Assembly (NCBI GenBank): GCA_001790095.1
Contig: MGBH01000001.1
Coordinates: 270,001 to 302,000, forward strand
Length of the DNA: 32,000 nt
Direction of reading: 5' to 3'
Source of the DNA: Candidatus Saccharimonadota bacterium
GTDB taxonomy: Bacteria > Patescibacteriota > Microgenomatia > UBA1406 > GWC2-37-13
The notes under the pieces are model-generated. The model searched no databases. It had not been told where the DNA came from and was given only the letters and a program-made list of their open reading frames with translations. A program made the translations under genes and the position numbers. Of the stretch, positions 2,598 through 23,331 are shown piece by piece. The stretch's first letter is position 1. Each line of letters starts with the position of its first letter.

Positions 2598-4166
2598 TTA
2601 AAACCGAAAATCTATTTCAATCTTGCCGTTACCTGCTCTGATCTCTTTTATGATCGCTCGTAGAAAATGCTTCTTCTCTTCTAAGTTGGCATTGTCCCAT
2701 AAGATATTGAAGTCTTCTAATGATTTGGTAAATTTCTCCAGTTCTTTGCGTCGTTCGTTTATCATCTGAATCTTAGTTTTATATTCATCGGTTACCACAT
2801 GGTATTTATTTTCTTCCTCGTCTAGACGCTTTATATTGGCTGCATACACCTCTAACGAATCGATTCCAGCCTCATAGGCATCTTTCACCCTCTCACGCCG
2901 TCTATCGATGTCTGATAGGTGTTTAGCAGCTAATTTATAGTCAATTTCGAGGTTGTCTGTGATTGTGATATTTCTGTCAAAGATGAGCCGTTCTCTAGCC
3001 GTAGGATTGTTTACAAGATTCCTAATTTGATTTAAAACAAACTCTTCTAGTCTTGTGGCACTCATGATCCTGCGCTGGCATATTCCCGTGTATTTATAGC
3101 CACCGCACAGATATTCAAAAGTTGTGGTGTTGTTCCACTTGGGGTTCTTGTTTTTTCTGTTATGGTGACGAGTTAAATATGTAACGCCAGAACCGCAACG
3201 GATACATTTGGCTATACCCGTAAGTAGGCCTCGACTCATCTTTGCCCTACCTTTTTGCGAATTTCCCCGTATCTTTTTTTCTTTTTGGGCTAATTTAAAT
3301 ATTTCCTCGGGTATTATGGCCGTGTGGATACCTTTTTCGATAATACCCTTATGATCTCTTAGTGTCCGTTGTTTGTTTTTAGCATAATCGGCATGTCTCC
3401 ATCCCCAAAGAACTTTTCCCGTATAGGTTTCGTTTTGTAATATGTACTTTATCGCCTGTGCTCGCCAATATTTACCCCTAGGTGGCTTAACTCCTTTTTC
3501 TGTTAATGAAAACGCAATGCTCAAAGCTCCTTTTCCTTTGGTATATTCGTCAAATATCTGCCTGACAATAATTGATTTCTCTTCATCCACCTCAACTTTT
3601 CTTTGCACTTTATTCTTTTCGTCTATCCATCGAATAATTTTGTAGCCGTAGGGTACGTTATTTGGTATTTTGCCTGATTTAGCCACTGCTACCTTACCCA
3701 TTGTCATTCTGCGTCTGATCTTATTTCTCTCGATCTCATTCATGGTGTCACTAAAACCCTCTACCATAATACCTAGATCGTCATCGGTAGGATCGTAAAG
3801 TTTCGGATCTCGGGGTTCGACGGGGGTAGCTACGGAATAGGTTTGGATGAACATCTTTTTTAAATCATCCCTCGCCTTTGTGGCGTATGATTTGTTTCTG
3901 GCAAAGCGATCGAAGTCTTTAACTACCACTAAATCGAATTTATAGTCTGATGCATCCTGCATCATTCGTTGGAAACCTAATCTTTCCTCTATTAGATGTC
4001 CACTTTCGACGTCCTGATATGGTTCTCCCACCAAATCCCATCCATGATCGGCAATGGTTTTCTTGCAGACTCTTATTTGATCGGAGACAGATTCCTTGCC
4101 ATCGGCTTGTTCTTTAGTGCTTACACGGGCATATATCACTGCCCTGATCTTAAATTTATTTTCCAT
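2598..4166 (-). CDS. Large serine recombinase (integrase of the integrated element)
   Basis: N-terminal resolvase catalytic domain AVIYARVSTKEQ. Central recombinase domain. Cys-rich zinc-ribbon region (CIRCGS...CGGYKYTGIC). Long C-terminal coiled-coil. 522 aa, typical of large serine integrases. Confidence 0.93.
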   Translation of the reverse strand: MENKFKIRAVIYARVSTKEQADGKESVSDQIRVCKKTIADHGWDLVGEPYQDVESGHLIEERLGFQRMMQDASDYKFDLVVVKDFDRFARNKSYATKARDDLKKMFIQTYSVATPVEPRDPKLYDPTDDDLGIMVEGFSDTMNEIERNKIRRRMTMGKVAVAKSGKIPNNVPYGYKIIRWIDEKNKVQRKVEVDEEKSIIVRQIFDEYTKGKGALSIAFSLTEKGVKPPRGKYWRAQAIKYILQNETYTGKVLWGWRHADYAKNKQRTLRDHKGIIEKGIHTAIIPEEIFKLAQKEKKIRGNSQKGRAKMSRGLLTGIAKCIRCGSGVTYLTRHHNRKNKNPKWNNTTTFEYLCGGYKYTGICQRRIMSATRLEEFVLNQIRNLVNNPTARERLIFDRNITITDNLEIDYKLAAKHLSDIDRRRERVKDAYEAGIDSLEVYAANIKRLDEEENKYHVVTDEYKTKIQMINERRKELEKFTKSLEDFNILWDNANLEEKKHFLRAIIKEIRAGNGKIEIDFRF

Positions 4167-9915: not shown

Positions 9916-11340
9916 CTAATTCCATAATTCATTCTCATTTCTGAACCTTGGGAAATAAGCATCACTACTTTGTCTTTGTGAAGCCACACGATACATATAC
10001 TCAAGAATATCGAGGAAGCTAGAAAAAGTGAGATATTCCATCGTCAGTCGGGCATAAAGCATCGTATCAAGAGCAACGCTAAATGGGCCACGCCTAATAA
10101 TAAATAGTCCATGATCATCTGGTGAATGTGCATAGAGGCCATCTTTCACTGAAAACATCCTATCTTTATCTTTTTCAAAATCAGCAATTTGTTTATCTAG
10201 ATCAGTTTCGGTACGATCTTCAATTTCCCAATTGTGCTGTTTTAGAATCTCCTTGAGTATGGTTACGTTTAACGTGCATTTAACCAAGTAATAACCAGAC
10301 ATCAAATACATGCAATCTTTAGCTGAGAATGGAAAGATTGAATACGGAGGAGCTGATCTAACAAAATTGCCTTTTTCGTCACTATAAAAAGTGTCCCAAT
10401 TGCTATGAATCAGTACCAAATCTTTTGTTTTTTCTTTAGGTGAGAGTTTCTTTAGTTCCTCAACATCAACAGGTTTCTTGTTTTCATTAATTGCTCTAAA
10501 ATTAGTTACTTCTATTTGTATGCAGTTGTCAAAATTTTCCGATACCACCATTTTCTTCTCTGATTTACGAAATAGCCGCTTGATTCTGCTAATGTAGGTA
10601 CGTGGCTCCAGTTCCATTACTCTCGTGTCAATATCAATTCCACCTATTCTAGCTTTGTTTGCTATCGCAATTCTTTGAAGTTCCAATAGCCTTTTTGCCT
10701 GATTGCTTATCTTTGCCTTACCTTGAACCCGTTTAAGGGTGAACATATTTTTAATATCTTTACCATATTTTTTGATTTCATGAATAAAAGCAACACCATC
10801 TTTGATCTCGGTTAAATCGCCTACCCTAAGAAAATGAGTTAAGTCATTAAGTATCACCAAACTATCAAGTGATTTAGAAATCCTATGCGCCCACATAAAC
10901 TCGCTTCTGAATTCTTTACTATTCACATCCACACTACCAGCACCAAATCCTCTGGAAGAGGAGTTTAGGAATGTGCGGTTATAGTTCAAGTTTCTCCATG
11001 CAATACCATCACATATCGTTCTGGAGATTCGTATTAATTGCTCATGGATGAGAATGTGATCTTCTAGTCCTCTGAGCTCTTTTTCTTCTTTAGGAGTTAA
11101 CTGGCTTTTGTCGTGTAGTTTTTTGGCCTTCTCTCGTCCTTCCCTAAGCTTTTCCCAAAACAACGTTTCTGCCTGCGCCAATTTGTATTGCATTGCAAGC
11201 ATTACGTCTTTCTTGTGCTTATGTCGCTTGCTCCTTGTTGCTCTTAGCACCTTTTCAAAGTAGCCAACCCACTCTTTGTAGTAGGAGCTGGCTAGAATAG
11301 CAGAGATTTTAATCGCATAGTCTTTTTCAAGCATGTACAT
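9916..11340 (-). CDS. Hypothetical 474-aa protein with NERD / PD-(D/E)xK-like nuclease motif
   Basis: aa 161-192 LVILNDLTHFLRVGDLTEIKDGVAFIHEIKKYG gives D175...E188-x-K190 in a beta-strand-like context (nt 10765-10860). No P-loop seen. Confidence 0.7.
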   Translation of the reverse strand: MYMLEKDYAIKISAILASSYYKEWVGYFEKVLRATRSKRHKHKKDVMLAMQYKLAQAETLFWEKLREGREKAKKLHDKSQLTPKEEKELRGLEDHILIHEQLIRISRTICDGIAWRNLNYNRTFLNSSSRGFGAGSVDVNSKEFRSEFMWAHRISKSLDSLVILNDLTHFLRVGDLTEIKDGVAFIHEIKKYGKDIKNMFTLKRVQGKAKISNQAKRLLELQRIAIANKARIGGIDIDTRVMELEPRTYISRIKRLFRKSEKKMVVSENFDNCIQIEVTNFRAINENKKPVDVEELKKLSPKEKTKDLVLIHSNWDTFYSDEKGNFVRSAPPYSIFPFSAKDCMYLMSGYYLVKCTLNVTILKEILKQHNWEIEDRTETDLDKQIADFEKDKDRMFSVKDGLYAHSPDDHGLFIIRRGPFSVALDTMLYARLTMEYLTFSSFLDILEYMYRVASQRQSSDAYFPRFRNENELWN

Positions 11341-11366
11341 ATATCTGAGTTTCGATCATCAATAAT

Positions 11367-12131
11367 TCATTTAACAAGTTGTTTTTTAAGTTTTTCTAAG
11401 ATTTTTATGTCATTTTCTGTTGCAACCTTCAGCTTTCTCATCTTCTCTAATAATGCAACAGCTTCTTTGTGGTTACCCTCCTTCTTGGCTTGCTTTGCTA
11501 ATGCCCGATATGCACTGCCCACAATTCCCAATGGCGCAGGTGGAGGACTATCTTTCCATTCTGGTGAAATTGCACACCTATCGCTTATGTTTAAGCCGAT
11601 CTCTGCACTTTTCAAATAGTTACCACGTTTGTAGAAGAGTTCAGCGTAAGAACACAAACATGGTTCGTATTCGTCAGTACTCTCAAAAACAAACTTTAAA
11701 ACTTTCTCTGCACGAACTAAATCCCTGATTGGAGCATCATCAACTAACATATGTCCAAGTTCGCCAGCTATATCTATTTGATCCAGATACTCAGCATTGT
11801 GCCGTTTTTCTAAGGGTAGTTGTACAGGAAGAGTGTTTGTGGATAATGAAAAAGCTTTATCGAAGCAAAATACCGCTTTATCCAGATATTCTTTCCTTTC
11901 ATCTCCACGAATATGCCAGGCAGTAAAGTTTCTCCAGGCTATGCCCATCCAATATGCTATTTTTGGGTTCTTAGTGTTCTGAAACTCATTTTCAATATCG
12001 CCAATAACCTTTAACATATTTTCTTTATTGAAATCTTGTTCATCCCCAAAGCCCATGCTTGTAATACGCATAAGTGCGGTTATAGCCTCGTTATCATTTG
12101 AATAATTTGATCTACTGAAGAAATTGAACAT
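11367..12131 (-). CDS. All-helical, TPR/Sel1-like repeat protein (254 aa)
   Basis: Repeated helix-pair segments: AYWMGIAWRNFTAW...YLDKAVFCFDKAF, YAELFYKRGNYLKSAEIGLN, GSAYRALAKQAKKEGNHKEAVALLEKM. Its start is 1 nt after the upstream stop. Confidence 0.65.
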   Translation of the reverse strand: MFNFFSRSNYSNDNEAITALMRITSMGFGDEQDFNKENMLKVIGDIENEFQNTKNPKIAYWMGIAWRNFTAWHIRGDERKEYLDKAVFCFDKAFSLSTNTLPVQLPLEKRHNAEYLDQIDIAGELGHMLVDDAPIRDLVRAEKVLKFVFESTDEYEPCLCSYAELFYKRGNYLKSAEIGLNISDRCAISPEWKDSPPPAPLGIVGSAYRALAKQAKKEGNHKEAVALLEKMRKLKVATENDIKILEKLKKQLVK

Positions 12132-12132
12132 A

Positions 12133-13281
12133 TTAGAGTTTGCTTAACAACGAGGCGTGGAACTCGTATGTTTTTGCAAACTCCGTGAAGGCATCAAAGT
12201 TGCTGAACATAAAAGACTCCTCAAGGCCACCCTCTGATTCGTAAGTCATATCACCATACTTAACAATGGGAATTTGATAATTGCCTTTGAATCTTTTATC
12301 CATAGAACCATCTTTATTAGCCTTCTTCCAAGTATGTTGAATAATCTCCGTATCCTTTGGTACACTTTCTTCTTCAACATAACCAGAAAGTTTCATTGTT
12401 GTCTTTACATCTTTAAGATCGAAGATTCCAAACTCTTGATTGTCTTTGAACAGAAGCAAGAATGTAGGAAATAAAAACACATCAGGGCCATTCGCATTGG
12501 GTAGAAATAAATGAGGTAAATCGCTTTTTACAAATTCAATTTCTCGTTCAGTTTTAGATATTGGAGTCCTTTTAGTGGCGGTTTGGGCTACAGTGCGTGC
12601 TTTGGCTCTGTCTACATTTTCTGCATAGGTAATATCCCAAATTTTTTCGCTGCTCATTAACTCATTGAATGTGTCAATACAGTTGAGCCAACTTTTCTCA
12701 AGTTGAGATTTATCAGCAAAAGTCAATTTAACAAAAGTTTCTAATACTTGCTTCTCTAGTTCTTTAACAACACTCTGTTGAATTTTTCTTGAATTGGCAA
12801 TCCCTTTATAGAAGAATCCTACTATAACGAGATAACTTCCAAAATGGATTGTGGAGAGTAAAAACAACTTTGTTTTAGCTGAATTGAGTTTTTTCAGTAA
12901 CTCAATACGTTGATTGTATATATCTGTAATTTGTTGACGTAGCACTTGAAAGTTTTTACTAGTAACTGTTAAGGCTTTGCTTGAGCTTCTGATAATATTT
13001 CCTGTATTTGATATTTCTATACCAGTTGGGTGTTCGTTATTCATAGGTGGATGTTTAACAGTATTAGAACTGTTATTTTTATTATTAGGAATTTTTAATA
13101 GATCGTCTACACTAACCGATGTTTTGTTATATACCTTATTGTAGAGTGCTTTCTTTGGATTCGTTAGTATTCCCATTCCTCTGGGAGCTTTCAAACCCAA
13201 GCTATGTCTTACAACTCGTTTCCAAGAGGTTCTAGCTGCAATTCTACGTTTTAATGATGGTGTTCTTATTCCAAATTTCAT
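12133..13281 (-). CDS. Single-pass membrane protein with a highly basic N-terminus and an unknown C-terminal domain of about 220 aa
   Basis: N-terminus MKFGIRTPSLKRRIAARTSWKRVVRHSLGLKAPRGMGILTNPKKALYNKVYNKT. TM helix at about aa 139-158 (LFLLSTIHFGSYLVIVGFFY). C-terminal domain unrecognised. Confidence 0.7.
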   Translation of the reverse strand: MKFGIRTPSLKRRIAARTSWKRVVRHSLGLKAPRGMGILTNPKKALYNKVYNKTSVSVDDLLKIPNNKNNSSNTVKHPPMNNEHPTGIEISNTGNIIRSSSKALTVTSKNFQVLRQQITDIYNQRIELLKKLNSAKTKLFLLSTIHFGSYLVIVGFFYKGIANSRKIQQSVVKELEKQVLETFVKLTFADKSQLEKSWLNCIDTFNELMSSEKIWDITYAENVDRAKARTVAQTATKRTPISKTEREIEFVKSDLPHLFLPNANGPDVFLFPTFLLLFKDNQEFGIFDLKDVKTTMKLSGYVEEESVPKDTEIIQHTWKKANKDGSMDKRFKGNYQIPIVKYGDMTYESEGGLEESFMFSNFDAFTEFAKTYEFHASLLSKL

Positions 13282-13302
13282 AATTGTTTTTAGCTTTAGT
13301 TA

Positions 13303-14082
13303 TTATTGAATACTGCACTGTCGCTGATAAAATTCATCTTGTTCTATCATCTTTCTAATTTCATTTTTTCTGTAGTTGTCAATGCAATTCTTGTTATTTT
13401 TCCCTGAGCCATACAAGCATTCATTTCTAACCCCATCTAAATTCAGGCTACTTCTAATAGATTCTAGTATCGTTAATTGAGGGTGTAACACACTATCATT
13501 TTCTATCCTGTATTCGATAGACTTCCATTCTTCAGAGTTCATTATTCCAAAAAACTTCCACTGTGCGTAAAAAGCTTCTGTCTCTTTATCAATACAAGAA
13601 AGCTCATCACTTCCATTGAGAGATTCTAGATATTGTTGTACGTGAGTAATTTCGTGGACAAGAAGTAATGCTGTAGTCAAGTCGTCCGTTGAACTATAAT
13701 CAGAATTAACAGTTATCGGAAAATAATCGCTTTTTATTTCAGGACTATTAAATACAAAATAGCCTTCTACACCAGAAGAACCTCGGGTATCATCTTCTAT
13801 AATTCTGATACAGTTAACTAATCGAGAAGGGAAAAAATACCAAGAATCTTCACCTTCACCACTATCTTCCCATAAACTGTATTTTTGTGCTATTAGACTC
13901 AAGGCTCGATCATATTGTGGTTCATTTTTTTGGCGTGTTGTTCTCGTACAATCTACAATTTCTGGTGTCTGTGTTAAATTTGAAGTATCTGAAACAACAG
14001 GAGACGTCTCTTTATAAAAGATTGAAGCAACCCAAACTAGTAAAACAAAAACTAAACCAAGAATAATATAACTTTTTTTCAT
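13303..14082 (-). CDS. Exported or anchored putative zinc metallopeptidase (HExxH)
   Basis: N-terminal hydrophobic helix IILGLVFVLLVWVASIFY. HEITH at aa 143-147 with downstream Glu residues (KETEAF, aa 166-171). Six Cys after the helix, consistent with an extracytoplasmic location. Confidence 0.7.
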   Translation of the reverse strand: MKKSYIILGLVFVLLVWVASIFYKETSPVVSDTSNLTQTPEIVDCTRTTRQKNEPQYDRALSLIAQKYSLWEDSGEGEDSWYFFPSRLVNCIRIIEDDTRGSSGVEGYFVFNSPEIKSDYFPITVNSDYSSTDDLTTALLLVHEITHVQQYLESLNGSDELSCIDKETEAFYAQWKFFGIMNSEEWKSIEYRIENDSVLHPQLTILESIRSSLNLDGVRNECLYGSGKNNKNCIDNYRKNEIRKMIEQDEFYQRQCSIQ

Positions 14083-14090
14083 AATTCTCT

Positions 14091-14714
14091 TTAGATATTT
14101 AATACTTTCTTTGACAACATGTCACCATATTTCCGATACATTTCCTCGGGCATTGAGAGTTTTAGCTTGTTCTCTATAGACGTGTTGTCGATAGTATCTT
14201 TTAATACTGAACTTTTTAAAAAATAGTCTCCCTCATGCGAAGAAGTACCAAGTAGACTGATAGTGCCAACCATAAACTTTGCAAAATTCTTCTTGTTTAA
14301 TACATCTTTTGACTTCACTATTACTGGCTCATGGATTTTAGCCTTATCAGATTTTGTATATGAGTCATAAGCAGTTAGGAGATTGTCTACAAAAGAATTT
14401 GGATCGAACATGTGCTTAGTTGTTGAAATAAATTGATCAAGTACCCCAAGTGCTATCAATAACTTTTCATCAGAGGATATTTTTGATTTTTTAACACCAT
14501 TCAAAACATCTATAAGCCCCATTGTAAGAACTTCTTTTGTAATAAAATCCTCTAATTCAAACTTATCAGGAAACAATTTATGCAAAATATTTCCGCTTTT
14601 TGGACGCTTCTTATATCCATAAGCACGCCAAACCTCATCATCCAACAATGGCCTCATTGCTGTACTTGCTAGGTATTCAACTAGATCGTTAATATCGGTT
14701 GTTTTATGTTCCAT
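14091..14714 (-). CDS. Hypothetical protein (208 aa from the internal ATG)
   Basis: The track ORF extends to 14792 and would overlap the upstream HTH gene by 77 nt. The ATG at 14712-14714 (MEHKTTD) lies 1 nt after the HTH stop, so the start was trimmed. No motif recognised. Confidence 0.65.
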   Translation of the reverse strand: MEHKTTDINDLVEYLASTAMRPLLDDEVWRAYGYKKRPKSGNILHKLFPDKFELEDFITKEVLTMGLIDVLNGVKKSKISSDEKLLIALGVLDQFISTTKHMFDPNSFVDNLLTAYDSYTKSDKAKIHEPVIVKSKDVLNKKNFAKFMVGTISLLGTSSHEGDYFLKSSVLKDTIDNTSIENKLKLSMPEEMYRKYGDMLSKKVLNI

Positions 14715-14715
14715 A

Positions 14716-14922
14716 TTATTTTTTTGTCCCACTCTTACTACGAGAGATATATGCCTGGATATCTTGTTTACGATAACGCCTATCTCCGACACCTCGCCGA
14801 GTGCCTACACGTACGGCTTTTAAGATTCCTTGTCGATCCCATCTCCGCAATGTTTGAGCGTTTACATTTAAGATTTTCGCTGTTTGCTCAATTGTTAACA
14901 GCTCTTCAATTTGTGGGTTCAT
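14716..14922 (-). CDS. HTH_17 / excisionase-family DNA-binding protein, paralogue of 4193-4402, first gene of the operon
   Basis: LTIEQTAKILNVNAQTLRRWDRQGILKAVRVGTRRGVGDRRYRKQDI aligns residue by residue with the first HTH. Start chosen at ATG 14922 (MNPQIEE), giving 68 aa against 69 aa for the paralogue. The track start at 14970 is less likely. Confidence 0.75.
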   Translation of the reverse strand: MNPQIEELLTIEQTAKILNVNAQTLRRWDRQGILKAVRVGTRRGVGDRRYRKQDIQAYISRSKSGTKK

Positions 14923-14924
14923 AG

Positions 14925-14951
14925 TAATTGTCTTTAATTGTACTAAATTGC
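14925..14951. promoter_or_regulatory. Three 10-bp-phased direct repeats TAATTGT / TAATTGT / AAATTGC immediately upstream of the operon's first gene
   Basis: Copies at 14925-14931, 14935-14941 and 14945-14951, with exact 10-nt periodicity. TAAATTGC recurs at 14991-14998. Confidence 0.45.
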
Positions 14952-15037
14952 TTGAGAATTTGCGATACAATAATGTAGAATATTAATAGTTAAATTGCCT
15001 AAACTTTGTGGTTTCCCCATAAGGCATGGCAAAAAAT

Positions 15038-15146
15038 CGGTTCAACGCAGTAAGCCCTTCATGGTGTTACGTTGAACCGTCGTGTGCCGAAAGGTATACG
15101 GGTGGCGCAAGCTACCAGCCGTGAGGGGCTTTTTGGTTCACACGGC
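15038..15146 (+). ncRNA. Structured GC-enriched 5' leader (candidate riboswitch/attenuator) of the zinc-ribbon gene
   Basis: 10-bp perfect hairpin 15038-15047/15070-15079. GAAA-tetraloop hairpin 15081-15100. GCAA-tetraloop hairpin 15101-15116. Competing 14-bp helix 15052-15065/15118-15131 followed by a U-run. The G.U pairs make the fold plus-strand specific. SD AAGGAGG at 15153-15159. Confidence 0.5.
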
Positions 15147-15166
15147 ATCTTTAAGGAGGTGAACAA

Positions 15167-15478
15167 ATGACAACTATTAAATGTCCATATTGCGCAGAAG
15201 AGATCCAAGTAGACGCCAAGAAGTGCAAACACTGTGGGGAGTGGTTAAATATTCCCAATGGCAATAACATTTTCAGTCCTTCAACTAGTTCAGTTGATGC
15301 AAGATCGGTAAGCAAAGGTATCAAAGACGCCGAATATAGCAAGTTTGTAATGGGTGTCTTGGGAGTAGTTGATCTATTTATTGCCGTTTGCGTTGGACTG
15401 TTTACCCATTGGATAGTTGGTTTAATCGTATTTGTCGGAATCGGAATGTGGATCGGTAATCGACACTATCAAGAATGA
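15167..15478 (+). CDS. Zinc-ribbon domain membrane protein (103 aa)
   Basis: CPYC...CKHC zinc-ribbon at the N-terminus and two C-terminal TM helices. Strong SD AAGGAGG 7 nt upstream of the ATG. Confidence 0.75.
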   Translation: MTTIKCPYCAEEIQVDAKKCKHCGEWLNIPNGNNIFSPSTSSVDARSVSKGIKDAEYSKFVMGVLGVVDLFIAVCVGLFTHWIVGLIVFVGIGMWIGNRHYQE

Positions 15479-15838
15479 GCATTATGATAAATAATCCTTA
15501 CTATCAATTCTTCTCCAATGTGTGAATGTGTAGACTCATAACTGCACATTTAGCCTTGATTGGAAAGACTACATAGACTATATATAGTAGACGTTTAACA
15601 TCCCAACACATATTTATTTGCTATAACTAGGGATATTAATCGGGATCAGCTATACTATTGGAAGATTCCGTTCAATTTAGATTGAGCTAAAATAAGTAAA
15701 ATCGAGGGGGCGGAGTAGTGAAATTGAAAATGCAGGGTAGAGGGTTAATAATCTAGTGTCATACTAGATAGGCATATGCGGTACCCTATATGCTAGCATT
15801 TCAAAAAATGCCACTGGCCTAATTGATACAAATATCCT

Positions 15839-21217: not shown

Positions 21218-22996
21218 TCACTTCACTGTTACGCTTTTTGCTAAATTCCTTGGTTTATCAGGATCTGCTCCTCTTCCTACGCCAAGATAATATCCAAGTA
21301 GCTGACCAACAATAACATTCAAAAATATTGAGTATCGTGGATCTACATCTGGTGTCTGTATCCATTCATCAAACAGAGGCGACCTTGTTGGGCCAACTCC
21401 AATGATATATCCTCCACGGGCCTTCATCTGTGAAGCAGATGAACAGATTTCACCGTATGATGGGCCACTGTCTGTCATGATGAAGCATGGGGTTCCCTTT
21501 TGGATAAGCGTTATTACTCCGTGTTTGAGTTCTCCGGCTGCAAAGGCCTCAGCATGCATATAGCTTGTTTCTTTTAATTTCAATGCAAACTCCAAAGCTG
21601 CTGGATAGTTATTATATTTACCGATCACGTAAGCATGTTCTTCGCTCAGTAATCGTTTTGCTATATTAAGAACAGTACTCATTAAGGATGCGTTAAGCCA
21701 ATGTTTTAGCTTACTTTTTAACTGGGTCGAACTGCGTATTAGACCTGTATGAGGTTTTCTTTCATAGTATTGATTGGCTACGGCGTATAGGGTTGCAAGC
21801 TGGGCTGTAAAGGCTTTTGTTGAAACAACGGATATTTCAGGTCCGGCTCCAACTGGAAGTGTAACATCTGCTAACCGTTCAAGAGATGATCCACGGGAAT
21901 TGACAATAGCCACAACTATGGCACCTCTTTTTTTAGCTTCTTTTGCAGGTATAAGAGTGTCGGCCGTTTCTCCACTTTGAGATATGGCAAATACAATTGA
22001 TTTGTTTGAAATAGACTTTTCAAAAGGAAGATACTCATAGCCGCCTACCACTTTAGAATCAATACCAAGTTGTGCAAAGTAATAATGAGCGGCTAGAGCA
22101 CAGTAATAGGCACTGCCACATCCTAATAATAGGGGCGTATATCCACTAACCATTTTTTTTATAACATGCTCAACAGTTTTCTTATTTGAATCAAAAGCTT
22201 GGGGAATAGTCTTTTTTTCCTCCATTATTTCTTTTAGAAGAAAGTGTGGGAATCCTCCTTTTTCAGTGTCTTCAAGAGTCCAGTCAACTGTTTGTTTCTT
22301 AAACGAAATATAAGACTGTTTAATCAGATCAAAGATCCTCCTTTCATTTTTTGAGACAACGACCGCCTCATTGTCATTTAGATAATATACGGAGTTGGTT
22401 TTATTCAGAAAAGCAGTAGTGTCTGAGGCGAGGAACGTTTCTTTGGGAGAGAATCCGACAACAAGCGGAGAGCCATTTCTGCATGCGATTACTGACCCTG
22501 TTTGGTAGTCTAAGACTACAATAGCGTTTGACCCGACTAGTTCACGAAACGTTGAGAACACCGCCTCTTCGAGGTCCATGGTTTTGCGTTTTTCTTCAAC
22601 AAGGTGGGCGATGACTTCGGTATCTGTTTCGGAGATAAAGGAGTGACCTTTCTTTATTAATTCAATCTTTAATTCGTGGTAATTTTCAACAATTCCGTTA
22701 TGAATTACCGCTATTTGCTTTTTACAGTCAAGGTGTGGATGAGCATTAGTGTCGGTGACCCCTCCATGAGTTGCCCAACGGGTATGTCCAATTGCAACAG
22801 ACCCATCAGGTAATGAGGTAGTAGCGATCCCTATTTTACCGACATGCTTGTCCACTTGGATAGTTGATCCGCCCATTGGTTTTATTGCAATTCCCCATGA
22901 ATCATAGCCGCGGTACTCAAGTTTTTTTAAACCCGCAAGCACCGTTTGTGCCGCTTGGTTTTGTTTGTCTTCAATAACAGCAAAAATTCCACACAT
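21218..22996 (-). CDS. glmS: Glutamine--fructose-6-phosphate aminotransferase
   Basis: The required N-terminal MCGI is at the ATG at 22994-22996; the track's 7-aa extension from a TTG is rejected. GHTRWATHG, two SIS domains (SQSGETADT), C-terminal KSVTVK-type end. Confidence 0.97.
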   Translation of the reverse strand: MCGIFAVIEDKQNQAAQTVLAGLKKLEYRGYDSWGIAIKPMGGSTIQVDKHVGKIGIATTSLPDGSVAIGHTRWATHGGVTDTNAHPHLDCKKQIAVIHNGIVENYHELKIELIKKGHSFISETDTEVIAHLVEEKRKTMDLEEAVFSTFRELVGSNAIVVLDYQTGSVIACRNGSPLVVGFSPKETFLASDTTAFLNKTNSVYYLNDNEAVVVSKNERRIFDLIKQSYISFKKQTVDWTLEDTEKGGFPHFLLKEIMEEKKTIPQAFDSNKKTVEHVIKKMVSGYTPLLLGCGSAYYCALAAHYYFAQLGIDSKVVGGYEYLPFEKSISNKSIVFAISQSGETADTLIPAKEAKKRGAIVVAIVNSRGSSLERLADVTLPVGAGPEISVVSTKAFTAQLATLYAVANQYYERKPHTGLIRSSTQLKSKLKHWLNASLMSTVLNIAKRLLSEEHAYVIGKYNNYPAALEFALKLKETSYMHAEAFAAGELKHGVITLIQKGTPCFIMTDSGPSYGEICSSASQMKARGGYIIGVGPTRSPLFDEWIQTPDVDPRYSIFLNVIVGQLLGYYLGVGRGADPDKPRNLAKSVTVK

Positions 22997-23005
22997 AATA
23001 AAAAT

Positions 23006-23033
23006 CTCAAATTTCAAATGTCAAATCTCAAAT
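23006..23033 (-). repeat. Four in-phase heptamer repeats (minus strand AUUUGAN x4) between the ribozyme-like leader and the glmS start
   Basis: Plus strand: CTCAAAT, TTCAAAT, GTCAAAT, CTCAAAT at 23006-23033. Confidence 0.6.
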
Positions 23034-23061: not shown

Positions 23062-23265
23062 ATTGGTAATGGAGCTCGTTTGAAGAAGTCTGTACCATGT
23101 TTTCTTTGATTCCTTCGTTACCGAAGGAGTTTAAAAAACATATTTAAGTTGACAGTTCAACTTGAGGGTTTCCGTAGATATACACCATAGATTGGTGTTT
23201 CCGATTCCCTCCGATTCGGAGGGCCCTCTCCTCGTAAACCTCCGATTCGGAGGTCCTTACGCTCT
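23062..23265 (-). ncRNA. glmS ribozyme-like 5' leader
   Basis: Minus strand reads AGAGCGUAAGG-[ACCUCCGAAUCGGAGGU hairpin]-UUACGAGGA-GAGGG...CUACGGAAACCCUC. This gives the A/GCG cleavage-site context, the conserved ACGAGGA, a GAGGG/CCCUC helix, and CGUA/UACG pseudoknot potential in the canonical position. Downstream hairpins and a CUUCUUCAAAC element follow. It sits directly upstream of glmS on the same strand. Confidence 0.65.
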
Positions 23266-23331
23266 TTTTTATAATATCTTCTAACTAGAGCTGATATTAT
23301 TATATCAATTTCAACTACAAATGTAAACAAA

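Follow-up and report, generated by a model that had tools for sequence, protein, structure and literature searches.

The element considered here lies in a window of 32,000 nucleotides (nt) from a Candidatus Saccharimonadota bacterium (contig MGBH01000001.1, positions 270,001 to 302,000 of the forward strand), the whole stretch of DNA that was analysed and to which the coordinates below refer. An earlier examination of the letters alone, called the original prediction in this text, had described a multi-hairpin leader upstream of a zinc-ribbon membrane protein gene. It was proposed as a novel riboswitch class or attenuator, a claim to be given up if an Infernal/Rfam scan found a known element. 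Such a scan has now been run over the whole window, and positions 14996–15139 on the plus strand are a copy of LOOT RNA (RF03000). The match covers 14996–15116 (+), scores 89.7 bits (gathering score 46.4) and is full length (model positions 1–121 of 121, E = 5e-16). In a permissive Rfam scan of 14700–15500, LOOT was the sole family. The novel class is thus refuted, because the core belongs to a known family. The structural insight behind it, namely the long-range helix, the U-run, the competing folds and the role as a leader, holds up across the LOOT family.

Around the element, the locus is organized as follows (bp, base pairs; aa, amino acids).

14716–14922 (−): divergent gene for an HTH_17/MerR-type DNA-binding protein, 68 aa (Pfam HTH_17, E = 2e-12)
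14952–14981 (+): promoter-like site TTGAGA-18 nt-TAGAAT from a consensus scan (10/12 matches; a consensus match only)
14996–15031 (+): LOOT hairpin P1, from the Rfam alignment (model positions 1–36)
15032–15037 (+): A-rich linker AAAAAU between P1 and P2, the upper-case A's of the Rfam consensus
15038–15079 (+): LOOT hairpin P2, with a 10-bp basal stem (15038–15047/15070–15079)
15052–15065 (+): 5′ strand of the long-range helix, in the P2 tip, paired with 15118–15131 according to covariation
15081–15100 (+): LOOT hairpin P3, 8 bp, conserved GAAA tetraloop at 15089–15092, two G.U pairs
15101–15116 (+): LOOT hairpin P4, 6 bp, GCAA tetraloop, one G.U pair
15118–15139 (+): 3′ tail beyond the Rfam model, comprising the 3′ strand of the long-range helix (15118–15131) and a U-rich tract
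15118–15146 (+): alternative local hairpin H5, GCCGUG/CACGGC, with the U-tract in its loop
15153–15159 (+): Shine–Dalgarno sequence AAGGAGG, followed by the ATG at 15167
15167–15478 (+): downstream gene (103 aa), its product with a zinc ribbon at the N terminus and a hydrophobic segment at the C terminus

LOOT entered Rfam from the Weinberg/Breaker motif alignments and is typed there as 'Gene; sRNA' (sRNA, small RNA). It appears as a 'metagenomic-based RNA' in the Rfam 14 paper (PMC7779021). The LOOT motif is not mentioned in the main text of the 2017 paper which describes these motifs (PMC5737381), and among the literature searched no paper assigns LOOT RNA a function.

The G+C content is 0.50 across 15000–15179 against 0.27–0.45 in the flanks, in agreement with the predicted GC-richness. 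The plus-strand fold of 14990–15166 reaches −71.5 kcal/mol (z = −5.3) and none of 200 shuffled sequences folds as well, whereas the minus strand of the same segment has a z of −0.96. The structure is therefore real and specific to the plus strand, to which it had been assigned beforehand; the long-range duplex described below is also weaker on the complement.

The three hairpins of the original prediction correspond to P2, P3 and P4 in the Rfam alignment. Their placement at 15038–15116 was right, while the extent of the element was underestimated: its true start lies 42 nt upstream, and the 5′ hairpin P1 had been missed. P1 is made of the stems UGCC/GGCA and CUUUGUG/CAUAAGG around an internal loop UAAA/CAU, and 14996–15037 agrees exactly with the upper-case positions of the RF03000 consensus (the CCUAAAC...GCAUGG loop and the A-rich linker). 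In the basal stem of P2, 15038–15047 (CGGUUCAACG) is perfectly complementary to 15070–15079, which confirms the first predicted hairpin with its 10 bp and its 22-nt loop. This loop (15048–15069) forms the apical part of P2 and is hereafter called the tip. P3 and P4 likewise have the pairs, tetraloops and G.U pairs that had been described for the second and third hairpins. The apical pairs which the Rfam model draws in P2 are non-standard at about 10 positions in the window.

Family-wide comparisons are based on loci gathered with an exact pattern built from the conserved P1 flanks. This search returned 36 loci in a genome collection and 101 in a metagenome collection. Rfam confirms full-length LOOT in 21 of the 36 genome loci, and these copies come mostly from Patescibacteria, also called the candidate phyla radiation (CPR), including Saccharibacteria, Microgenomates, Staskawiczbacteria, Magasanikbacteria, Uhrbacteria and Doudnabacteria; a few LOOT-carrying bins are labelled Gammaproteobacteria or Bdellovibrionales. 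The remaining 15 genome loci fall below the LOOT gathering score and were set aside, most being chance pattern matches in coding sequence. Among these 15, two are truncated copies (L005 and L007) and one is devoid of P4 (L032). The truncated LOOT in L007, from 5182 to about 5260 (+), extends through P1, the linker and the 5′ half of P2 up to and including the tip, after which unrelated sequence sets in; it could be a decayed copy or a recombination junction. The closest genomic relative of the window element is L021, from a Microgenomates bin, with the same promoter region and the same downstream gene. The zinc-ribbon protein of the window is also encoded on a 626-kb public contig (Ga0208373_1000009) with the same neighbours, where the HTH_17 neighbour is called as a 68-aa gene.

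Conservation of P1 and of the linker is partly built into this set, since the loci were collected by an exact P1 pattern. Two additional copies that do not carry the exact P1-flank pattern were found by the model; each lies in tandem, on the same strand, with another LOOT. The pairs are located at 3687–3832 and 3920–4062 (+) in L089, 87 nt apart, and at 2553–2407 and 2178–2035 (−) in L123, 228 nt apart. Both additional copies keep CCUAAAC/GCAUGG and the match between tip and tail, and have lost the A-run of the linker.

Across the family, the hairpins are well supported by compensatory changes. The upper stem of P1 is 94% paired (compensatory changes in 6 of 7 pairs), the basal stem of P2 93% (10/10), P3 98% (8/8) and P4 90% (6/6).

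The RF03000 model ends at P4 (15116) and leaves out some 22 nt of 3′ tail, which are complementary to the entire apical part of P2. The resulting tip:tail helix is a conserved part of LOOT which is missing from the Rfam model. In the window, 15052–15065 (AAGCCCUUCAUGGU) pairs with 15118–15131 (GCCGUGAGGGGCUU) over 14 bp, including three G.U pairs. The sequence UUUUU (15130–15134) is located directly at the end of this helix, within the U-rich tract UUUUUGGUU (15130–15138). Helix and U-run had been predicted at exactly these positions, and both are now seen to be conserved and covarying across the family. In almost every copy, about 14 nt follow P4 before GGGCUUUUUGU or GGGCUUUGUGUU is reached. 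The tip:tail duplex amounts to −27.1 kcal/mol in the window; when tips were paired with the 60 nt downstream of P3 in copies that had not been pre-selected, −20 kcal/mol or lower was reached by 79 of the 84 distinct ones, with a median of 20 pairs.

Each tip matches its own tail. Cognate duplexes average −26.4 kcal/mol, compared with −18.3 kcal/mol (standard deviation 4.8) for tips combined with the tails of other copies, −14.7 kcal/mol for shuffled tails and −18.7 kcal/mol for the complementary strand. The permutation z of cognate versus non-cognate pairs is −16.7.

Covariation was assessed in two alignments. In a MAFFT alignment of 48 copies (A2), pre-filtered for a strong tip:tail duplex, the 14 pairs of the window are 87.8% paired, 13 of them with changes on both sides. 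The 124 double-change cells observed there compare with 40 ± 6 in shuffles, and none of 500 shuffles reaches this number; sliding the partner by 1–3 columns leaves 41–59% paired. One position of the helix occurs as GC in 15 copies, AU in 13, CG in 9, UG in 9 and UA in 1, and UG is the commonest pair type at two positions. The second alignment used a covariance model built from P1–P4 only, in which the tail was left unpaired, and comprised 89 copies. Its 12-pair tip:tail core is 90.9% paired, and 219 double-change cells are counted against 67 ± 9. Taking both alignments, the core is 91–92% paired, and 11 of the 12 pairs are compensatory. The comparison of homologues which had been suggested as a check of the helix therefore supports it. 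The unfiltered sets (duplex prevalence, cognate test and covariance-model alignment) agree with the pre-filtered one.

In an open search for partners, the antiparallel tail column is the best covarying partner of nearly every tip column. This covariation reaches into the U-tract, for example where a C in the tip is matched by a G in the tract. The family U content is 60% in the tract versus 26% further downstream. The apical P2 hairpin was considered as the conserved partner of the tip and rejected: in the register of L102 it is 49% paired, which is no better than shuffles. Only weak covariation signals are seen within the tip, and the apical hairpin may still form in sub-groups.

We infer from these features that tail and U-tract form a terminator-like element. 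A G+C-rich helix stands directly before a U-rich tract, as in the window, where GAGGGGC is followed by UUUUUGGUU. The compact hairpin of an intrinsic terminator is absent: the strands are separated by 52 nt that contain P3, P4 and one strand of P2, and the helix crosses the P2 stem.

The P2 basal stem and the tip:tail helix cross each other in a pseudoknot topology, and both are kept by compensatory changes. The helix uses nearly the whole 22-nt loop of P2 and leaves linkers of 1–4 nt. One strand of an A-form helix of 14–20 bp spans about 40–55 Å, while the closing pair of a hairpin holds the ends of its loop about 18 Å apart; beyond one helical turn, the tail must thread through the closed loop. 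Because the helix occupies the whole loop, competition with the P2 stem is probable, and from geometry and calculated energies the full tip:tail helix and the closed P2 stem probably exclude each other. The competition suggested in the original prediction between the helix and the first hairpin is therefore likely, with near-equal energies on both sides.

For a window RNA that ends at the U-run, we calculated −53.7 kcal/mol with P2 closed and the tail free, and −59.1 kcal/mol with the tip:tail helix formed and the P2 stem open. For the read-through RNA, the values are −70.6 kcal/mol with P2 and the local tail hairpin, and −69.1 kcal/mol with the tip:tail helix. Across 57 copies the fold difference is −2.3 ± 3.1 kcal/mol, and it stays within 5 kcal/mol in 44 of them. 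These modelled energies fit a two-state design with nearly isoenergetic folds.

Further partners have been considered for the tail. The local hairpin H5 pairs 15118–15123 (GCCGUG) with 15141–15146 (CACGGC) at −15.7 kcal/mol and is possible solely in the read-through RNA. L021 holds a compensatory version (UAGCGG/CCGCUA). In the family, the H5 signal is weak (cognate −10.6 versus −8.7 kcal/mol, permutation z = −6.2). Since no U-tract follows H5, it is not itself a terminator, and together with the weak cognate signal this led us to reject it in that role; H5 could keep the tail occupied after read-through by the polymerase. Another pairing, between 15081–15086 and 15139–15144, had been proposed as an alternative. 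It is indeed present in the window, and it is absent from L021; because it has no counterpart there, we treat it as probably due to chance. In the unconstrained minimum-energy fold of the terminated RNA, the tail segment GCCGUG (15118–15123) pairs with CAUGGC of the P1 receptor strand (15025–15030), a strand that resembles the 3′ half of the tip (CAUGGU). This pairing is probably a coincidence of the sub-family.

Sequestration of the ribosome-binding site by segments of LOOT was tested and rejected: the 3′ strand of P2 gives a small cognate excess (z = −3.4, about 1 kcal/mol) and the other segments give none. The 5′-strand sequence of P2 is repeated before the ribosome-binding site as CCGAUCA in L021 and as CCGUUCA in L107, and the 3′ strand of P2 could pair there. 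Past the U-run of the window, GGUUCAC (15135–15141) is complementary to GUGAAC (15158–15164) beside the Shine–Dalgarno sequence. Both sequences recur in L021, and in L038 with a G.U pair; they may form a hairpin near the ribosome-binding site in the read-through RNA of this sub-group.

The genomic context points to a leader. In loci offering 500 nt or more of room, a simple open-reading-frame call was applied alike to both strands. Of the nearest genes downstream, 61 share the strand of LOOT and 5 lie on the opposite one; 9 loci have no downstream gene within 400 nt. Upstream genes show no such bias (25 on the same strand, 32 on the opposite one), and the downstream preference is significant (binomial p = 3e-13; Fisher p = 3e-9). 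The start codon follows the end of the tail by a median of 40 nt, which leaves little room for a separate promoter; in the window the distance is 28 nt. The Shine–Dalgarno sequence and the start at 15167 are present as originally described, and L021 repeats the arrangement of tail, Shine–Dalgarno sequence and gene. The role of a leader or attenuator, which the original prediction had assigned to the element, is thus favoured by its context (61 of 66 downstream genes on the same strand, a median of 40 nt from the tail).

Judged from their sequences, the downstream products are enriched in membrane or secreted proteins. A strongly hydrophobic segment of 19 residues is present in 44 of 64 downstream products (69%) compared with 11 of 60 upstream neighbours (18%; p = 1e-8). 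The product in the window matches Pfam Zn_ribbon_3 (E = 6.7e-7), and zinc ribbons are the commonest downstream type (Zn_ribbon_3 in 7 of 48, Zn_Ribbon_1 in 5, DZR in 5). Most other downstream products are without a Pfam match, and the genes are very diverse.

On the upstream side, the promoter-like site TTGAGA-18-TAGAAT lies within the 73-nt divergent gap between the start of the HTH_17 gene (14922) and LOOT, and L021 has a very similar sequence at the same position. Many LOOT loci carry a motif (T/A)ACAA(T/C)TnAAT (ACAAyTnAAT) 0–9 nt before P1, at about 14979–14995 in the window. This motif could represent either a protein-binding site or a promoter element of the −10 type in which a C is unusually conserved; between the LOOT of L008 and its downstream gene, a similar motif is seen again.

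We propose that LOOT is a 5′ leader with a conditional terminator, a reading to which we give a probability of roughly 55%. A promoter of its own would drive LOOT as the leader of the gene behind it, which in the window encodes the zinc-ribbon membrane protein. The tip:tail helix and the U-tract would constitute an intrinsic terminator whose upstream strand is locked in the loop of the P2 hairpin. During transcription, P2 would fold first. If it stays closed, the tail would pair partly at most and the polymerase would read through into the gene; if it opens, the full tip:tail helix would form beside the U-tract, and termination would release a LOOT RNA of about 140 nt. Docking of the GAAA loop of P3 into the receptor-like loop of P1 may tune the balance between both folds, and the signal which shifts it could be a ligand, an ion, a protein or the temperature.

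A wider formulation is more tentative and, in our estimate, falls somewhat short of even odds. According to it, LOOT would be a widespread class of cis-regulatory leaders, and not an sRNA, in Patescibacteria and some other bacteria, controlling a regulon made mostly of membrane or secreted proteins. Its terminator would be unusual in that the apical loop of a sensor hairpin provides the upstream strand; opening or closing of this hairpin would select between a short RNA and read-through.

Several observations weigh against the conditional terminator. Rfam files LOOT as an sRNA gene. In L089 and L123, tandem copies occur without an intervening gene, so that in L089 a second LOOT and not a gene follows a LOOT copy. 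A simple terminator scan of the window does not detect the tip:tail element, as two hairpins are located in the 52 nt which separate its strands, and this genome shows no enrichment in canonical terminators (10 found, 12.4 expected). The mutual exclusion of P2 and the tip:tail helix is a geometric argument, and partial coexistence as a true pseudoknot could occur. Finally, a Pfam scan of the downstream genes reveals no shared pathway that would point to a ligand.

Some of these points would be natural for a stand-alone, trans-acting sRNA. The tip:tail helix would then be a permanent pseudoknot or closing helix which also serves as an efficient terminator, and the following gene would be unrelated or would tolerate read-through. 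The Rfam typing, the promoter-like site just before the RNA, the U-tract that ends it and the tandem copies without a gene between them are all compatible with this, and the conserved nucleotides belong to tertiary-contact motifs with no obvious ligand pocket. We nevertheless consider it an unlikely, if serious, explanation: the orientation bias of 61 to 5 exists downstream and has no counterpart upstream, the 40-nt median gap leaves most downstream genes without a promoter of their own, and a strong enrichment in membrane or secreted proteins is hard to explain for an unrelated gene.

It is rather doubtful that LOOT is a true riboswitch for a small molecule or an ion, in which a ligand on the P1–P3 fold stabilizes the closed P2 or the pseudoknot and thereby sets termination. 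The position as a 5′ leader and the two near-isoenergetic folds would suit such a device. So would the combination of a tetraloop with a receptor-like loop, which is found in some riboswitch aptamers; the c-di-GMP-I (cyclic di-GMP) aptamer contains a tetraloop/receptor pair. Diverse, envelope-rich downstream genes are also encountered with second-messenger riboswitches. However, no conserved junction or internal loop other than the receptor-like one resembles a pocket, the downstream genes do not form a coherent metabolic or transport set, and each LOOT in the collection has its own promoter-like motif, also between tandem copies.

The neighbourhood of LOOT raises the question of mobile elements. 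Mobile-element or restriction-modification genes make up about one third of the upstream neighbours scanned, among them 5 Resolvase-domain genes (3 of them full-length large serine recombinases), 4 HTH_17 genes, 2 transposase helix-turn-helix genes and 1 tyrosine integrase. The large serine recombinase genes are full length in L008, L055 and L132 and partial in L072 and L083, and the small HTH_17/MerR genes are found in the window (14716–14922, −), L038, L107 and L090. Both types of neighbour are mostly divergent, and restriction-modification genes are common neighbours as well. Taken together, these neighbours suggest that LOOT loci lie in variable or mobile regions. In the window, five open reading frames of 474, 254, 382, 259 and 233 aa without a significant Pfam match occupy 9916–14792 (−), up to the HTH_17 gene, and may represent an island of orphan genes beside LOOT. 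The possibility that LOOT is an integration target with duplicated fragments was rejected, as no repeated LOOT parts occur within the loci examined.

A regulatory RNA of integrative mobile elements, comparable to the CI RNA of phage P4, is one reading of this setting. A resident P2 tip would pair with nascent tails and terminate transcription, with specificity provided by covarying tips and tails. The proportion of mobile-element and restriction-modification neighbours, the HTH_17 gene and the orphan-gene block next to the window LOOT, and the occurrence of LOOT across several phyla with near-identical P1 could be read in this sense, as could tips and tails that vary between copies yet stay matched. 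Against it, LOOT was absent from IMG/VR in the pattern search and no LOOT-like DNA was found by blastn in the GenBank phage and plasmid collections, and most loci have no recombinase nearby. Tips also fall into few similar types, so that non-cognate duplexes already reach −18 kcal/mol and specificity would be poor. We regard this explanation as improbable.

That the complementarity is a feature of the DNA (an inverted repeat or a recombination site) and not of RNA structure is very improbable indeed, since the helices contain many G.U pairs, folding is much poorer on the complementary strand and no LOOT parts are duplicated in the loci, even if some tips are palindromic as DNA (CTGAAC-CCGTC-GTTCAG), recombinase genes lie near a few loci and one truncated LOOT fragment exists (L007).

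The whole window contains two Rfam matches at gathering level, LOOT RNA being one of them. The other is a glmS ribozyme (RF00234) at 23086–23274 (−), with 71 bits against 37, upstream of a 599-aa open reading frame at 21218–23017 (−) which is presumably glmS.

As a sequence feature, the element in the window is a routine Rfam match. Three results go beyond the catalogue entry: the conserved 3′ tail with its pairing to the P2 loop and its terminal U-tract, the bias for same-strand genes directly downstream, and the enrichment of membrane or secreted proteins among these genes. They turn an orphan motif into a hypothesis that is testable with defined mutations. To our knowledge, very little has been reported on gene regulation in the small-genome CPR bacteria. 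If the conditional terminator is correct, LOOT would offer access to the signals to which these bacteria respond in controlling their surface proteins, and an extension of the Rfam model by about 22 nt as well as a re-typing of the family would be suggested.

Finally, the element can be related to known systems. The canonical 11-nt receptor of the GAAA tetraloop reads CCUAAG/UAUGG (PMC2615604). LOOT shares the CC-UAA-x/x-AU-GG layout in P1 and a conserved GAAA loop on P3. The G and U of the canonical wobble pair are replaced by A and C, so that the window, with CCUAAA/CAUGG, does not contain the exact receptor sequence; the P1 loop is possibly a variant receptor for the GAAA loop of P3.

Compared with RF03000 itself, the window has the CCUAAAC/GCAUGG loop of P1, the A-rich linker, a long P2, the GAAA loop of P3 and a GNRA loop on P4, and it shares the taxonomic setting of CPR genomes and metagenomes. 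It differs from the family description by an additional tail, some 22 nt long and shared with almost all other copies, in which the segment pairing with the P2 tip runs up to a U-tract, and by the poorly formed apical hairpin of P2. In addition, Rfam types the family as an sRNA, while the gene context points here to a 5′ leader.

In phage P4 immunity, pairing of the CI RNA with another RNA leads to premature termination. LOOT resembles this system in having a structured RNA loop complementary to a downstream sequence of the same transcript, in termination as a possible outcome, and in some neighbours that are mobile-element genes. The two differ in sequence and structure, for which there is no homology; LOOT occurred in no phage collection searched, and its action in trans is hypothetical.

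ZTP and fluoride riboswitches are terminating riboswitches in which a strand of the sensor pseudoknot is shared with the expression platform. With riboswitches of this type, LOOT has in common a structured 5′ leader, one strand with two conserved alternative partners, a U-tract that directly follows one of the helices, and a gene at a short distance. An ordinary terminator hairpin, absent from LOOT according to the terminator scan, is a first difference. The second lies in the helix next to the U-tract, which in LOOT is itself a long-range, pseudoknot-type helix whose upstream strand is a hairpin loop located 52 nt away.

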